From the NCBI GenBank assembly GCA_043816965.1, contig JBDRHK010000054.1:1-22269 (forward strand): a stretch of 22,269 nt of DNA, read 5' to 3'. This stretch comes from Candidatus Iainarchaeum sp. (GTDB lineage Archaea > Iainarchaeota > Iainarchaeia > Iainarchaeales > JAFCCJ01). Position numbers: made by a program. Positions 3,001 through 15,000 of the stretch are shown one piece after another (the stretch's first letter is position 1; each line of letters starts with the position of its first letter).

Positions 3001-6000
3001 GGGCATGAAATTGGCCACAACCTGAATTTATCCTTAGCGACGGTTAGTAAGATAGATGCATCTAAAAAAATAGATAAAGTTGCAGAGCATCTAACTGAAG
3101 ATGAAAAAAACAGGATAGAACGAAATCTGGTCACTATTGAGGAGTTCATGACTCCTGAGGATGTTAGGAAATTACATGAGGCCGTATTTCGTTGGAAATT
3201 ATTTCAGAAGGTTAAGTTAGAAAAAACCGATTTGAAATATATGAAAAAGGTTCTTTCAAGATTAGAAAAAGAGTTTAAAATTAAAGAAAGGCATAGAAAA
3301 ATATTTTTAAATTTCCTAGAGAAATATGAAAAGGCGATTGCAAAAAAAGACATAAATTCAAAATCGTTCAATAAACTGCAGGATAGTCTTTTTAAAGAAA
3401 TTAAGAAATATTTCTTTTTTCATGCAGGCTATCAATTTTACGTCATATATCTTTTGGTGCCCTTGTTGCCAAGTTCGGCTTCTTTAAGATATCCGAATAA
3501 TAATCCCTTGGATACTTACAACGAATCCTCCCCAGTGATTAAAGTCTTTGGTGAATTATCAAAGCACATAAGAGCCGCCATTGACTGTTTCAGTATCTTC
3601 TTTGATTTTGTTAGCTCTTTTTCTAGGTTCAGAAAAGATTATGAAAAAAAGGCAGCCCTTATGGCTTCCAGAGAAACGCCACGGCCTGCAAAAGAAAACC
3701 GAGAAAAATAAGCAGAATCGCCAGTATGTCAAAAGTTTCCTGACTGATTTTCTTCCTGGCTTTCTGCACGAACCCGAAAAGGGCGAGCAGAGCCAGAAGT
3801 CCATACAGAGTGACAATCAATACGCTCATACAGATATTCTGCTAAGGTGTTATATAAAGGGCGAGGACCTAGCAAACCCTCGAAAAATCACACAAAAAAG
3901 GGTTTTTAAGGTTTAATTATTATATGGTCAATATGGTTGATGTTGTTACTTCTCAATTGATTCTGACTGGTGCTCTTGTTTTAATAACCGGTTATTATGC
4001 TTGGGCCAATAAGCAAATGTTAAATGAGATGAGAAAAACAAGGGAGTTGGAAAACGACCCGTCAATAAAAATCCATTTAGTCGCAGAATTAGATTTCAAT
4101 AGAGACACACAAGAGTTCGAACCAGGTCCTCCATTCTATACAGAAATTATTAATATTGGTAAAGGTCCAGCATATGACTTGAGTATAATTGCGACTGACA
4201 TGGCAACAGACGAATCTATCCATGAAAAACATGACATTTTGAAGCCTGGCGACACACTAAGCCCCTTTTTCAGGGAGCAAGTCATACATTGGAAGACAAA
4301 AGTTTTTGAAAAAGATTATTCTATAATTGTCAAGTATGAGAATACTTTAGGCCAAAAAAAGGAAATTGAAAAAAGATTTGACAAAAAATCCGGCCCTGTT
4401 CCTCATTACTCAAAAACACCCAAGAGACCGTTGGAAGACATTGTCGATGTGCTTAGAGATATTAGAGACTCGTTAGAAAAAAACACTTAAAAGTTCAAAA
4501 TTTGCACAAAAACCCCTGTTTGGAATCCAAATTGTAATCCCTTTATGTGCAAAGGCAAATTTTACGAAAGATTTATTAATATCTATAGCTATTATGTTCT
4601 GTTATATGTCACACAGTAAAAAAGTAACAACCATTATGATAAGCCCAAAAACCAGGGATAATCTCAAAGATCTTGGAAAAAAAGGAGAAACGTACGAAGA
4701 AATAGTCGTGCGCCTCATAAAAGCGTATATTAAATAGTTTCCAACAAGATTATTATGGCTCAGGGTATGTGGAACTGACGATGATACTGAGTGTCAACGA
4801 TGAAGAGAGATGGGCGGACTGAACCTGAGCCAAAAGCAAACCCAAGTCCATCATACATAGAGGGTCTAAGTGTTCATCTGACGATGATACTGAGCGTCAG
4901 CGATGAAGAGAGATGGGCGGACTGAGGCGAAATATCCTAAACAGATCAATTAGTGACAAGGACTTTTCACGTTTCCTTCTTCTATCGCAATAAAATTATT
5001 TTGTTTTAAGTATAGTCAAAACTCCTGATTCTTCATAAAAGTATTTTCCTGGTTCTTTAAGTAAGAACTTAATATTTTTCAGATTAGGTAAATTAAATTT
5101 TCCCTTCCCATCAAAACCTATATATCTGTCAATTACTATTCTGCCACCTTTTTCAAGAAGAGGAATATAATTTTTTACTAATGAATCAATAACATCGCGG
5201 CGGGCACTAACGCGAGGTATAATTATTAAGTGGAATTTCCCGATGTCTTTTGAAGGGGGCCTTAACAAGTTAATATTCTTTTTTTTCATCAACCCCTGCT
5301 CGACCCACAAAAAAACTTTCTTGACCAACCTTGGCCCTGTGTCTCTTCCTTTCTCCGGGTAATCAATATCTCCAATAACATAATTTTTGGGATGCAAACC
5401 ATAATTCTTAATCAAATGTTCTGCAAGTCTGCCACTTTGAGCGCCAATTTCAAGAACCTTAACCTTATCTGGCCCACCAACTAATTCAGACAATTCATGG
5501 ATCCTAGAATCAAGTGACATAACTTTCATTAGAAACGAAATTTTTGCAGAGAATCTTCCAGTCAAATTGTCAGGGTGTCTGCGCCAAGGATACCGTCTTC
5601 GGAGGTTCTCCTCCTGGGCTTCGCCTCCCAATTCGGGCCTATGACGTTTTTGACGGTTTGAACCCATAAACAAAAACAAATCTCAAACTAAATATAAATA
5701 ATTCGGGAAGTTCAAACCCCTATTTATACATTTTTATCCCCCATTTTCCCATGGTAACTAACTCCTCATCTTTCGGCTAAGATGGGCGGACTGAGGCTAT
5801 TGTTCACTTATTGTAAACATTATGTTTATAAATAGTTAACATAATAATATTAACTATGAATAGACTACCCAAGCTTTTAACGCCTTTTAATTTAAAAATT
5901 CTTGAGATGCTTATTGATGAAAACATTTCTGTTAGGGATTTGGCAAAAAAAATTAAATGTTCTCCCGCCAAAATAACGCAATTCATTAAATTATTCAAAA

Positions 6001-12000: not shown

Positions 12001-15000
12001 AAATTTGATTTTGACGAAATAGGATTCATTTACGTGAGTCTTTCACTCGAAGGAAATACCCTGACTTTATCAGAAACCGAAAGAATGATTAGGCAAAATA
12101 TAGCTCCTGCCTCAAAACCAGCGAAAGACGCGCAACAGGTTCTTGATTACAAAAAGGCTCTTGACGGCTTCATTTTTTCCAAAAGCGCAATAACTGAAGA
12201 CTCTATTCTTGACTTCCACAGGACTGCGATGAATTCATTGGCAGCTGGTGCTGGGCAATTTAGGATAGATAATGTGAGGATAAAAGACAACCCGAATTTT
12301 AAAACCCCGGAATGGCGGGAACTTCCCGGCTTGTTAAGGACTTTTTTCGAGAATATTAAAACCCAAAAAAAGGAAAAAACCACGGCTGTCGGGATAGTTG
12401 AAGAGGCTGCTTTTTTGCACAATGAATTTCAGCGCATGCACCCATTCATTGACGGCAACAGTAGGACATCAAGAGCAATATTCCTAAAAGTGCTGACCCA
12501 AAACAATTTTCCCCTGATAAAAATACCTGTGGGTTTTTCCGACCAATACATGCTGCTCACAAAACTAAGCGAAAAAAGAGACGACAAAAAGTTCGCCTTG
12601 CTGATGAAACAGATTGCCCTTGAAAACCTGAAACACTTGGCAAAAAAAATCGAGCATGAATTCTGACACGCGAAATATTTCTTTACCTTTCGGGCAAGAT
12701 GGGCGGACTGAGGCTATTGTTTACTTATTGTAAACATTATGTTTATAAATAGTTAACATAACAATACTAACTATGAACAGAATACCCAAGCTTTTAACCC
12801 CTTTCAACCTAAAGATTTTTGAGCTGCTTATTGATGAAAACATCTCTGTTAGGGATTTGGCAAAAAAAATCAAATGTTCCCCGGCCAAAATAACGCAGTT
12901 CATTAAATTATTCAAAAAAGACAATTTAATTAAAACCAGCAAAGAAAAGAACAGGAAGATTCTAATTTTAAATAAAGAAAACCCGGTAATAAGGGAGATT
13001 ATCTCCCTGTTGTTTATTGATAAAATTGTCACGTCAAAAACTTTTTCCGGGCTGAAAAAGAATGCAAAATCAATCGGCGTCTATGGGAGTGTTGTTGAAG
13101 GCAGTTTAGACAAGAAAAGCGATATCGACCTTTGGGTTCTGTCCGACATAAAAATTCCCCTGGTTGATGCAGGCAATTTAAGGATAAAGATGAGTGAGGA
13201 ACTCGGGAGAGAGGTAAGTATAAAATTTTTCACGCCCAAAGACATCAATAACCTTAAAAAAAAGGATGGAATATTTTACAACGAGCTTGAATATAAATCA
13301 AAAATAATATGTGGTGAAGGATTTTGAAAAAGAGCAAGATTGACGAATGCTTTGAACAAGGTTTGCTAAAAAGGATAAAACCTAATATGAAGTATGCGGA
13401 GCAAAGTATCAAACAGGCAGAACATTTCCTGGATGAAGCACAGGAGTTAATAGAAAGGGAAATCAGGGATATGGCATTCATTGCCCTGTATAGTGCATCC
13501 TTTCACGCCGCAAGGGCATTGCTTTTTAGGGACGGAATAAAAGAAAGGAGCCATTACTGCGTTAGTAAATACCTTGAAGAGAAATATACGGGGAAAGAAC
13601 TTATCAGCATGAGGCAGGCAATTATTCTGGATTCATTAAGGGACAAAAGGAATTCAATACAATATTCCCTCGAAAGAACAGAAATGGAAGAAGACCTGAA
13701 TGAAATTTACAATGAAATTGAAGGCTTTCTTGAAAAAGTAAAAGAGATTCTTAAAAAGAATTAACCCATCACCTATCGGCTAAGATGGGCGGACTGAGGC
13801 GCTGGAATTTTTTGAGTTTGAATAAAGGATATATTTAAATATATAGCCGGCTATATATTATTCATGGCTACTTTAAGTGCAGATGTTACCTCTCAAATGG
13901 TCAGATGGATTGACGAAAAAGTCACTGCCGGCTTTTATAAAAGCAGGAGCGAGGTAATTAGAGAATTGCTTAGGGAGAAGATAACCGGGGAAAATTATTC
14001 CAAGGCCGCCCTGTCTGAAAAAGTCTTAAGAAAGATTTGGGATAATGAGAATGATGAAGTTTGGTCTTCTTATTTGTGATTTGTGATGAAGCAATTGAGT
14101 GTTGTTTTAGCCAGATTTCCATTCACTAACCAGATTGATTACAAGATAAGGCCTGCCCTGATAGTTTCAAATGACAAGTTTAACAAGGCACATAATTTCT
14201 GCTGGGTCTGCCCAATAACTTCCAAAACCACTTTAAAAGAATTTGAAGTTGAAATTCCTGCAAGTGAATTCAGTGGCGAACTGAAAACCAGGAGTTATGT
14301 CCGCGTTGATACAATTGCCTCAATGGAGAAAAGCCTGTTTCTCAAGGAAATAGGCAAAATTAGTTTCGAGTTATTTAAAAGGCTGAAAAAACAAGTGATA
14401 CTGAATTTGTGAATTAAAAAAAGGCGAATTAGCCCCTCATCTTTCAAGCAGGATGGGCGGACTGAGGCTATTTGAATATTAATGAAAACAGGTTCAGCCA
14501 GTCGGCAATCAGGAAGATTATTATTGAGAGTATGATAATTTTCAGTAAATTTATGCCGTGCTTTTTTTCCTCTTCCTTTTTGGATTCGCCCTCGCCAGAT
14601 TCTTTTTCTTCCTGTTCCGCTTCATCAGCCTCTTCGCGCTGGAAGGATTCAACCATCTCCTGCAGGGCATCAATTTCCTTTTCCAAATCCCATCTAACGG
14701 CTTTTAATATGACAACAGTAAGGGCGAAAGAATAAAGGTAGGAAAACAGGTTGCTAACAACAATCTGGTCGACAAGGGAAACCATCAATACCATTATTAC
14801 GGCAAAACTGAGAATTTCCCCTGGAGTGTTTAACTCCAAAACTTGCCTGAATTTGCCCATAGAAACAAGTTATCCCGAAGAGATATATTAAATTAACGAT
14901 TTGGCATAAAACTCACCAAAAGCTTTTTACATTCTTTTCCCCCAAATTAATACTATGTGGGCAGATGCGATAATTGTGATTGCCTTTACGGCGATTTATT

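Follow-up and report, generated by a model that had tools for sequence, protein, structure and literature searches.

Gene cassettes and repeat sites of the array

The DNA analyzed here (the window, a 22,269-nucleotide stretch from Candidatus Iainarchaeum sp.) carries ten gene cassettes separated by 12 copies of a short repeat core, all on the plus strand and spanning positions 4807 to 14467. To the left lies a low-GC region (1 to 4756; GC content 0.353, versus 0.459 in the right flank and 0.425 in the genome) in which Pfam identifies a TrmB/Csa3-like HTH protein (2225 to 2746), a HEPN-domain protein (2842 to 3711), and a DUF7557 mini-ORF (4606 to 4737) among unknown ORFs; this region contains no copy of the core. 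To the right, a conserved flank starts at 14924 (14924 to 15145, plus strand), with a 222-nt blastn match of 82.4% to the sister genome, G152.

The cassettes are 0.55 to 1.8 kb in size and contain no recombinase. Most consist of a toxin-antitoxin pair or a defense-type gene, preceded by an AT-rich region of its own that appears TATA-like by eye. The gene content given below comes from Pfam and NCBIfam scans, with which the list in the initial annotation agrees, and some systems were named by PADLOC. Read along the plus strand, cassette 1 (4928 to 5796) holds a single minus-strand ORF of 227 amino acids (4996 to 5679) and ends in a hairpin-type site (5764 to 5796); the ORF has no family match in Pfam or NCBIfam, and by eye we noticed a class I methyltransferase-like motif in it. 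Cassette 2 (5797 to 7619; end site, 7587 to 7619) encodes an MNT-like nucleotidyltransferase (5856 to 6410) and a HEPN protein (6407 to 6847), classified by PADLOC as PDC-M05A/B, followed by an unknown ORF of 225 amino acids (6884 to 7561). It is two fused units, because a vestigial left site arm persists inside it at 6849 to 6857. Cassette 3 (7620 to 8303; end site, 8271 to 8303) pairs a DUF4258-like gene (7670 to 7939) with a YgiT zinc finger/MazE-like antitoxin gene (7936 to 8268). Cassette 4 (8304 to 8854) carries HicB-like (8348 to 8566) and HicA (8559 to 8789) genes, both recognized by Pfam, and ends in a longer, sRNA-like site (8807 to 8854).

Cassette 5 (8855 to 9603; end site, 9571 to 9603) encodes a 208-amino-acid protein (8915 to 9541) that matches no Pfam or NCBIfam family and has the look of a membrane protein by eye. 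In cassette 6 (9604 to 10670; end site, 10638 to 10670), a family 2 glycosyltransferase is listed at 9589 to 10554, although its true start probably lies downstream of 9589; in G165, the same cassette adjoins the sRNA described below. Two later cassettes repeat earlier ones: cassette 7 (10671 to 11356; end site, 11324 to 11356) has a second DUF4258-like/YgiT pair (10723 to 11321) and is 92.6% identical to cassette 3, and cassette 9 (12714 to 13799; end site, 13767 to 13799) has a second MNT/HEPN pair (12773 to 13764) and is 93.6% identical to cassette 2 over 1061 nt. Between them, cassette 8 (11357 to 12713; end site, 12681 to 12713) encodes a Fic-domain protein (11440 to 12666; Pfam), which PADLOC assigns to SoFic/PDC-S04. 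Cassette 10 (13800 to 14467; end site, 14435 to 14467) contains an RHH antitoxin gene (13864 to 14079) and a PemK/MazF toxin gene (14083 to 14412). It had been proposed that every unit is followed by a site; this holds for the ten cassettes but not for a last, minus-strand unit (14468 to 14923), which has no terminal site, consists of one minus-strand ORF of 130 amino acids of unknown kind (14468 to 14860), and is missing in G152.

The repeat cores begin at 4807, 4910, 5779, 7602, 8286, 8837, 9586, 10653, 11339, 12696, 13782, and 14450. We located them with the 18-nt 3′ core at up to 3 mismatches, for which 100 shuffles gave an expectation of 0, and thereby recovered the 12 direct plus-strand copies reported initially. 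The accompanying description of a two-arm pattern was borne out in part: all 12 sites share the core, but only 9 of them match the full 33-nt pattern, 5′ arm included, at up to 3 mismatches, the upstream half being different at 4807, 4910, and 8837. Confinement of the sites to this stretch also stood, in that a 16-mer (up to 2 mismatches) is restricted to this contig of the 1.34-Mb assembly apart from one 2-mismatch match on C104. Sites follow stop codons by 0 to 70 nt and have the orientation of the genes in 8 of the 10 cassettes. The conserved 3′ module of a cassette is about 47 nt long and comprises GTAAyTAA, a 9-nt arm, a 6-nt spacer, and the 16- to 18-nt core. In a collection of 185,579 species, the arm-plus-core pattern occurs at only 5 loci, all in Iainarchaeum-type metagenome-assembled genomes (MAGs).

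The repeat core as the tail of a C/D box sRNA gene

The invariant 16 to 18 nt of the site are the tail of a conserved C/D box sRNA: the last part of its D guide, its box D, and its 3′ terminus. What had been described as a hairpin site is therefore a real repeat but not a new kind of site: the part that is conserved is the 3′ half of a C/D box sRNA gene with a housekeeping role. The 16-nt core (up to 1 mismatch) is present in 65 of 196 genomes of the order, representing 29 of 73 genera, with 0 control matches; 45 of the 65 have a single copy, and this lone copy is the sRNA gene itself. The sRNA loci of relatives have the textbook C/D box layout. Among 36 distinct copies with a retained D′ guide, box D is CTGA in 35, a C′ box TGAnGA lies exactly 12 nt upstream of box D in 32, and a box C within one mismatch of RUGAUGA is found in 28.

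Each of the two guides is perfectly complementary to a stretch of the order's own 16S rRNA. The D guide forms 9 contiguous Watson-Crick pairs (positions 1356 to 1364 in G014 and 1355 to 1363 in G063) and the D′ guide 11 contiguous pairs (1012 to 1022 and 1009 to 1019, respectively); 23S rRNA offered no comparable match. The N+5 position of the D guide falls on the starred C of CCGC*CCAUC in 16S rRNA, which we take to be the equivalent of E. coli C1402. Genes for fibrillarin and Nop5 are present on C28 of the assembly to which the window belongs. The only Rfam match of any RNA family in the array is to the C/D family sR2, below its gathering score of 42: 21.2 bits at site 2 (4877 to 4927) and 23.4 bits at the long site of cassette 4, where a C′-like box (ATGACGA) stands 12 nt ahead of box D.

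At the left end of the array, two sRNA copies lie in tandem 103 nt apart (4757 to 4927), both without a canonical box C. Site 1 (4757 to 4831, plus strand), as read from the sequence, is a full-length copy with a variant box C. It comprises an 8-bp terminal stem (4757 to 4764 with 4824 to 4831), the variant box C region (4765 to 4774), the D′ guide (4775 to 4786), a D′ box CTGA (4787 to 4790), a C′ box ATGAAGA (4800 to 4806), the D guide (4807 to 4818), and a D box CTGA (4819 to 4822). It is 88% identical to the G152 sRNA over 51 nt; the same variant box C with a long stem occurs in G111, and the variant box C alone occurs in G096. Site 2 (4878 to 4927, plus strand) is a long-type copy that runs from the D′ guide to the 3′ end, has no upstream box C, and is 94.5% identical to the G152 sRNA over 55 nt.

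Related loci and a model of cassette accretion

In G152, blastn finds a single site, the sRNA, with the right flank directly after it (7 to 8 nt past the sRNA) and the whole array missing, in accord with the initial annotation's claim of one site and none of the 10 kb. The left flank of the window (1 to 4771) has no blastn match at the G152 locus and is not syntenic with it. Since the left flank of G152 instead maps to a different contig of our genome, C100, the island is at least 14.9 kb long and runs off the window.

Arrays elsewhere in the Iainarchaeales are built in the same order. The first site carries the D′ guide in all 12 arrays of relatives with a visible left end, and later sites are partial 3′ copies; the first copy also has a C box in 9 of the 12 arrays, but not in this window, G111, or G013. 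By analogy, this layout, with the fuller copy first and partial 3′ copies after it, is that of tandem integration at a tRNA gene. Site-bounded cassettes in other genomes had been noted before, and we find that the Fic cassette has identical edges in G013, G165, G068, G066, and this window (5 genomes of 4 families): in each, its 1357 to 1415 nt start 2 nt past a core and end with the arm and core, and the sequence outside is unrelated. Within a single genus (g29), species differ in the cassettes that they carry. One protein gene of G068 is cut short at a junction that falls within the core; the orthologues from 5 genomes continue for about 11 to 16 further codons.

We favor, with moderate confidence, the explanation that these cassettes lack an integrase, are mobilized in trans, and have been captured at the sRNA gene through site-specific recombination. 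The last 16 to 18 nt of the sRNA (end of D guide, box D, and 3′ end) would serve as the chromosomal attachment site, into which a circular cassette bearing the core would enter by conservative site-specific recombination, with the enzyme acting in trans. The sRNA gene would remain intact on the left, and the cassette would terminate in a partial 3′ copy; because each partial copy would become a fresh target, cassettes would stack head to tail. Points against this explanation are the lack of a canonical box C in both sRNA copies of the window and the make-up of the sites: the 6-nt spacers vary from site to site and the sRNA offers no left arm to match, so the arm-spacer-arm unit cannot be a core of the classical type with its identical overlap region. 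The arm may act either as a half-site for a recombinase or as an RNA helix masking the orphan guide. Such accretion would mean that a tiny archaeon gathers toxin-antitoxin and defense genes much as an integron does, through a different docking site.

The closest likeness is to tandem accretion at the 3′ ends of tRNA and tmRNA genes. In the parts consulted of a review of archaeal tyrosine recombinases (PMC8371274), tRNA genes are favored at their 3′ ends and the gene is rebuilt after integration; the words sRNA, snoRNA, and non-coding RNA do not occur in that review. Such accretion shares with the array an intact RNA gene at the left end, direct partial 3′ copies behind each insert, empty sites in relatives, and several units head to tail. 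However, the target here is a C/D box guide sRNA gene rather than a tRNA gene, the units are just 0.55 to 1.8 kb, and no integrase-bearing element was seen at the site in any of the 65 loci. The lack of an integrase within the units is shared with CIMEs, which are integrase-less, cis-mobilizable elements.

The search for a recombinase and alternative explanations

A PF00589 search of the contig was empty, as the initial annotation had stated. Pfam scans of 150 of 180 listed ORFs in and around 16 related loci (14 reached) gave no recombinase, the sole transposon-type match being one TnpB-like ORF 2.3 kb from an array. With the order's integrases as queries, tblastn returned 0 matches in the 65 loci (446,525 nt) and the window and 0 in 10 metagenome loci. 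IMG/VR contained no virus with the site in context, and we observed neither an excised circle nor a polymorphic junction.

These empty searches count against the explanation that we favor and would suit a reading that we consider unlikely, in which the module, carried by each cassette, is a transcript 3′-end element (a terminator, stabilizer, or processing signal) derived from the sRNA tail, and arrays grow and are shuffled by homologous recombination of the 33- to 47-nt repeats with one another and with the sRNA, no dedicated recombinase being involved. The placement of sites just after stop codons, mostly co-oriented with the genes, points the same way. So does the folding: the hairpin is slightly more stable than shuffled sequence as RNA (mean z, −0.81; n = 44) but not as DNA (mean z, −0.02; n = 44), arm and core pair in 89.4% of cells versus 37 to 61% in slid controls, and at 2 of 8 positions the most frequent pair is U·G, which stabilizes RNA only. 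However, 0 pairs are altered on both sides, so covariation is absent, and the hairpin by itself is weak evidence. Archaeal terminators use oligo-T tracts, and the module has none. Repeats of 16 to 47 nt are also short for efficient homologous recombination, and this reading leaves unexplained the start of arrays at the housekeeping sRNA, the sharp onset of sRNA identity at the core, and the G068 junction, which falls within the core at a place almost devoid of homology. A precedent exists in Pyrobaculum, where, in the parts consulted of Lui et al. 2018 (PMC6009581), sRNA genes that overlap ORFs at their 3′ ends are described, along with MITE-like sRNA elements.

It is improbable that the host XerA recombines the cassette sites, in the manner of bacterial IMEX elements or Acinetobacter pdif modules, to which the array would then be an archaeal equivalent. 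Those modules are moved by a host enzyme and, in the case of pdif, carry toxin-antitoxin genes; like the cassettes, they are small, recombinase-less, and bounded by short arms around a 6-nt spacer. Arms of about 9 to 11 nt around such a spacer are the dif geometry in the parts consulted of PMC2958812. XerA-type matches are present in 186 of the 196 genomes and are the only PF00589 matches in 5 of 20 multi-site genomes, these 5 being incomplete MAGs; in our genome (G000), no recombinase class beyond those of PF00589 was found. Against XerA, the sRNA target is short of the left arm, the spacers differ among sites, the same inner arms were not found elsewhere in the genome, and all sites are direct repeats, whereas pdif sites alternate. 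The best dif-like candidate, a perfect 11-6-11 palindrome on C42 that is single copy in 5 of 196 genomes (up to 3 mismatches), is unlike the cassette site.

Very improbable is a reading in which the sRNA gene itself has multiplied (through duplication, a MITE-like process, or an RNA-mediated route) and the intervening genes are incidental. The tandem copies at 4757 to 4927, the 84-nt tandem units that we see in G120 and G136, and the Pyrobaculum elements argue for it, but most copies are only the last 16 to 18 nt joined to an unrelated conserved arm, gene-bearing units move with fixed edges, and G152 differs from the window by an entire array. In Pyrobaculum, sRNA sequence is likewise multiplied within a genome and at protein-gene 3′ ends; there, according to the parts consulted of PMC6009581 (in which the word stem "integrat" does not occur), whole sRNA-like elements multiply without cargo, whereas here the tail alone is repeated and delimits cassettes at one locus.

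A genuine integron or CALIN like those reported from archaeal MAGs, with IntI-dependent attC × attI recombination, is scarcely credible: the array resembles chromosomal integrons and the mostly IntI-less attC clusters of 75 archaeal MAGs (Ghaly et al. 2022, PMC9668308, in the parts consulted) in its one- and two-gene cassettes of a single orientation, structured end site, toxin-antitoxin enrichment, duplicated or fused cassettes, and often nonadjacent recombinase, but it is not an integron, because both IntI and attC architecture are missing. No attI, IntI, or PF00589 match lies near any array searched; the 33- to 47-nt site has by inspection no R″/R′ inverted pair (RYYYAAC...GTTRRRY), as the initial annotation's denial of a canonical attC implied; as DNA, its hairpin gains no stability over shuffled sequence; and its core belongs to a housekeeping RNA gene, with cassettes that seem to have their own upstream regions. 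Since the site core is the 3′ half of an sRNA gene, tandem accretion at an RNA-gene attachment site fits better, and of the original proposal that cassettes were stacked at one site as in an integron, the discrete cassettes and the one chromosomal site, empty in G152, are retained. For the accretion that we favor, candidate enzymes in this genome are an unassigned 486-amino-acid tyrosine recombinase encoded on C74 and a XerA-like protein encoded on C31.

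The C/D box sRNA tail at the cassette sites

The initial annotation described the array at 4809–14923 of the window as integron-like and its cassettes as punctuated by a 40-nt hairpin site. The feature itself is real, and comparison among relatives indicates that the site is the tail of an sRNA gene. Matches to its 18-nt 3' core (up to 3 mismatches) occur 12 times between 4807 and 14467, all on the forward strand, and 100 shuffles of the window gave none. Copy number and orientation are thus as first reported, whereas the complete 33-nt arm-spacer-arm unit is present at 9 of the 12 sites. 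The copies had also been described as confined to this stretch; in the 1.34-Mb assembly, a 16-mer of the core (up to 2 mismatches) does fall on this contig, except for one 2-mismatch match on contig C104. The three sites that have no arm (4807, 4910, and 8837) each carry a UGAUGA-like box exactly 12 nt upstream of CUGA. At two of them we observed weak matches to the C/D box family sR2 of Rfam (RF01139), with scores of 23.4 and 21.2 bits where the gathering threshold is 42, and these are the sole RNA matches inside the array. A subthreshold sR2 score is expected for a new guide because C/D families are guide specific.

Across the order Iainarchaeales, the 16-mer (up to 1 mismatch) is found in 65 of 196 genomes, representing 29 of 73 genera, and is single copy in 45 of these genomes; the reversed 16-mer, used as a control, matched nowhere in the 196. 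The single-copy loci are built alike: enclosed by a short terminal stem, AUGAUGA precedes a conserved D' guide and a first CUGA, and past a short loop, AUGAnGA precedes the D guide, which is conserved and 12 nt long, and a second CUGA. Judged by sequence, they are model C/D box sRNAs of the archaeal kind. The D' guide is retained in 36 distinct copies; of these, 35 have CTGA as box D, 32 have a C' box (TGAnGA) at the right distance, and 28 have box C (RUGAUGA, up to 1 mismatch), and the guide between C' and D is exactly 12 nt long. Genes for fibrillarin (263 bits) and Nop5 (Nop, 151 bits) adjoin each other on contig C28 of G000, the genome to which the window belongs.

Because the G000 assembly contains no 16S gene, we compared the guides with 16S rRNAs taken from two relatives, G014 (locus L076) and G063 (L077). 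The D guide forms 9 contiguous Watson-Crick pairs, at 1356–1364 in G014 and 1355–1363 in G063, and the D' guide forms 11, at 1012–1022 and 1009–1019, respectively; 23S rRNA offers no match comparable to either guide. To our knowledge, the decoding-centre sequence is otherwise universal and reads CCGCCCGUC. In both relatives, the 16S rRNA (approximately 1355–1366) reads CCGCCCAUC in its place. The D guide fits this lineage-specific form perfectly. The nucleotide methylated under a C/D guide is placed by the N+5 rule, which puts the predicted D-guide target at the first C after G in CCGCCCAUC, that is, C1359 of the G014 16S rRNA. We take this nucleotide to be the equivalent of E. coli C1402 in the decoding centre. 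For the D' guide, the predicted target is the A in GUCA*UCG, at position 1015 of the G014 16S rRNA. Position 1402 is not mentioned in the accessible part of PMC7994747. From the sRNA loci of relatives together with these 16S matches, it follows that the invariant part of the site first described belongs to a housekeeping guide RNA and comprises the end of its D guide, its box D, and its 3' end.

Cassette arrays and unoccupied sites

The array in the window opens with a complete sRNA (site 1, 4757–4831) whose terminal stem is 8 bp long and whose box C is a variant. Site 2 lies 46 nt beyond it, and both of these sRNA copies keep boxes D, D', and C', with box C either noncanonical or absent. Searches of Pfam, NCBIfam, and PADLOC bear out the contents originally listed for the ten cassettes (4928–14467): nucleotidyltransferase/HEPN twice, DUF4258-like/YgiT zinc finger twice, HicB/HicA, RHH/PemK, Fic, a family 2 glycosyltransferase, and unknowns. 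Cassette proteins of 225, 208, 227, and 130 aa belong to no family in these three collections. For the two cassette types present twice, the copies share 93.6% (1061 nt) and 92.6% (680 nt) identity; they have diverged and are not duplicates made by the assembly. In cassette 2, two units are fused: behind its HEPN gene the left arm alone persists (6849–6857) and is followed by another open reading frame (ORF). The terminal unit (14468–14923) has a right end without a site.

An unoccupied counterpart was reported for the sister genome of the same genus, G152, and our comparison agrees: a single sRNA is followed 7 to 8 nt on by the right flank, which begins at 14924 in the window. The left 4.7 kb of the window is also missing at the G152 locus, and its GC content is 0.353, versus 0.383 in the array and 0.459 in the right flank. 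The left flank of the G152 locus maps to contig C100 of G000, and the island therefore extends past the window. Positions 1–4756 encode a 289-aa HEPN protein, a Csa3/TrmB-like HTH protein, and a DUF7557 mini-protein, and they hold no copy of the site.

At least two core copies are present in 20 of the 65 genomes, and we examined 20 such regions. In all 12 arrays with a visible left end, the first site carries the D' guide and the later sites are without exception partial 3' copies. Of these first sites, 9 have a C box as well, and G111, G013, and the window show no canonical one. Partial copies belong mostly to the arm type, and 40 align without gaps over about 47 nt, a module composed of GTAAyTAA, two variable bases, a 9-nt arm, a 6-nt spacer, and the core. 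Longer copies, which begin at the D' guide and have no box C, occur in the window (4878–4927), G111, and G013. The cassettes of relatives are drawn from the same pool (MNT/HEPN, HicAB, Fic, GT2, DUF4258/MazE-like, and RHH), and G111 has one 5.4-kb unit with transporters. A Fic cassette recurs in five genomes from four families, where it starts 2 nt past a core and terminates in an arm and core; beyond these edges the DNA is unrelated each time. In genus g29, different species hold different cassettes behind the same sRNA. The arm-plus-core pattern was found at 5 loci among 185,579 species, all of them in Iainarchaeum-type MAGs, and arm-type sites are specific to this order.

Several related structures were observed beside these arrays. 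In G120 (L054:7960–8044) and G136 (L053:1417–1685), tandem 84-nt gene-free units, each terminated by a core, stand behind an sRNA that differs in its D' half; they are cargo-less mini-arrays. The first 5 to 51 nt of contigs C30, C44, and C45 of G017 are the same sRNA tail. Array sizes in MAGs are underestimates because the repeat breaks assembly. In G066 (L044:5088) and G068 (L040:8853), a half-sRNA made up of C' box, guide, and box D lies right behind the herA stop codon and is followed by cassettes, with Fic among them in G066. We read this half-sRNA as a third docking locus or, alternatively, as a second paralogue of the sRNA. The HerA protein of G066 contains an intein.

Proposed mode of insertion and competing explanations

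The array is best described as a tandem accretion at an RNA gene with integron-like capture of cassettes. We propose that small circular cassettes would enter the 3' end of the RNA gene by conservative site-specific integration and that repetition of this step would produce the stacked units. The observed facts agree with such integration; the circle, the class of the enzyme, and the crossover point are inferred. The same integration logic is described for tRNA genes in a review of archaeal tyrosine recombinases (PMC8371274), in whose accessible part the terms sRNA and snoRNA do not occur. As in such RNA-gene-targeted elements, an intact gene stands at one end with partial 3' direct repeats behind each insert (in the window and 12 related arrays), and the site is unoccupied in close relatives (G152, and the 45 genomes with a single copy). 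Among the papers listed by full-text searches, we found none that describes attachment at a C/D box sRNA gene and none that describes such arrays in Iainarchaeales. More tentatively, and with some doubt, we suggest that the Iainarchaeales own a system dedicated to gene capture, which would be the archaeal counterpart of the integron. It would dock at the tail of a gene for a ribosomal methylation-guide RNA, its cassette sites would be bulged inverted repeats on that tail, and its recombinase would be of a novel kind or a repurposed housekeeping enzyme.

At a second array locus of G068 (L042:7544–8677), the gene for a 178-aa protein (8659–9192, reverse strand) beside fibrillarin/Nop5 is truncated and its frame runs into the core; five same-genus orthologues are about 11 to 16 codons longer. 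Synteny between G068 and G066 ends exactly at the core junction, where the native gene bears almost no likeness to the core. The junction is a breakpoint inside the core and not a product of homology, and it speaks for the core as a recombination site. This observation weighs against the alternative that an RNA 3'-end element is combined with homologous recombination, which we consider unlikely. On the other side of that question stand the searches for a recombinase. In agreement with the initial annotation, no integrase lies on the contig, the three PF00589 genes of G000 being on C31, C74, and C81. Pfam detected no recombinase in or within 3.5 kb of 14 related loci, a scan of 150 of 180 ORFs, namely, those outside the 30 of L051–L056; the same scan returned one TnpB-like ORF, 2.3 kb from one array. 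Proteins from the integrase loci of five genomes gave no tblastn match in 65 sRNA/array loci (446,525 nt) or the window. A metagenome scan returned 10 loci, 9 of them of the same family, and tblastn found no integrase homologue in these 10. Neither a Y1 transposase (PF01797) nor a serine recombinase was found in G000, whose assembly is 86% complete. Hairpin transposition of the IS200/IS605 type (PATE-like) was rejected, as no Y1 HUH transposase was found in the 86%-complete assembly and the left ends of cassettes have no hairpin in common.

Hijacking of the Xer system would supply an enzyme for the proposed integration. The C31 gene of G000 encodes a XerA-like protein, the best 150 matches of an order-wide PF00589 search are all of the XerA type, and among the matches listed, 5 of the 20 multi-site genomes, all five of them incomplete MAGs, have a XerA-type match only. 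The candidate XerA dif site of G000, for which PMC2958812 is our source of dif geometry, is a perfect 11-6-11 palindrome at C42:23581–23608. It is present in a single copy, recurs in 5 of 196 genomes and 4 genera (up to 3 mismatches), and is unlike the cassette site; we regard this explanation as improbable. The 486-aa integrase on C74 has no tRNA, Rfam match, or convincing direct repeat in its flanks, and integrases of five array genomes are 31 to 36% identical to it, with no obvious common orthologue. On C81 (15144–16376; L105), a 411-aa tyrosine integrase gene directly behind a tRNA-Glu gene is an ordinary tRNA-targeted element elsewhere in G000.

Self-proliferation of the sRNA has a possible parallel in Pyrobaculum, for which MITE-like sRNA elements and sRNA-ORF overlaps are described (PMC6009581; the word stem "integrat" is absent from its accessible part). 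The copies behind the first site are partial here and come with cassettes, and we hold self-proliferation to be very improbable. The array shares with integrons a single docking locus that gathers recombinase-less cassettes, and this much of the original likeness stands, together with the stacking of cassettes, but the features that define the integron family, IntI, attI, and attC, were not found here. An attC site measures 57–141 nt and forms an R''-L''...L'-R' imperfect palindrome with a GTTRRRY core. By inspection, the 40 aligned sites form a module of about 47 nt with no R''/R' pair, as expected from the earlier statement that the site is not a canonical attC. True attC/IntI integrons are described in 75 archaeal MAGs (PMC9668308), and for the present array a true integron is hardly credible.

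Standard pairs between arm and core make up 89.4% of 320 cells, versus 37 to 61% with the partner slid, and values like those observed are also reached by shuffles. Since the 3' side is invariant, there is no pair with a change on both sides; U·G is the commonest pair at 2 of 8 positions, and an alternative helix between arm and box D, mutually exclusive with the arm-core helix, is 71.4% paired. Across 44 partial sites, including a few outside the arm type, RNA folds are slightly stabler than those of shuffled sequence (mean z −0.81). DNA folds are no stabler (mean z −0.02) and so lend no support to a single-stranded DNA hairpin like that of attC. The arm may act as a half-site for a recombinase or, in cassette transcripts, as an RNA helix masking the orphan guide. 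Over 4300–15600, four DNA runs yielded contigs that are short low-depth fragments of 150–300 nt, none spanning a site, and these have no bearing on excision. No cassette-loss joint appeared among them; the single joint reported, of 7954 with 8152, has a shorter side of 29 nt and comes from a high-depth foreign contig.

Implications and further observations

If our reading is right, C/D box guide RNA genes would be an added class of chromosomal attachment site, and the sRNA core and the 47-nt cassette site would make a concrete substrate pair for finding the enzyme. Genome-reduced DPANN archaea would then keep a compact, fast-turnover hotspot for toxin-antitoxin and defence genes, and "cassette arrays" of archaeal MAGs without IntI need not be integrons. 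The same reading would annotate a conserved dual-guide sRNA with a predicted target in the decoding-centre region of 16S rRNA. We know of essentially no annotated guide RNAs in this lineage.

Exact core matches on 5 contigs of a viral collection (GC 0.51–0.66) have no sRNA or arm context and were set aside as chance. In the right flank of the window, a weak AdoCbl-II riboswitch match at 16866–16943 on the reverse strand (24.8 bits against a gathering threshold of 36.5; E 0.084), in or beside the ORF at 16621–17346, is probably also due to chance. At or close to its contig ends, G000 has two families of 28-nt inverted repeats, one at C32:40, C78:42, and C107:40 and the other at C63:4 and C74:22895, the last on the contig of the 486-aa integrase. 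These repeats may be the ends of repeated mobile elements that break assembly.
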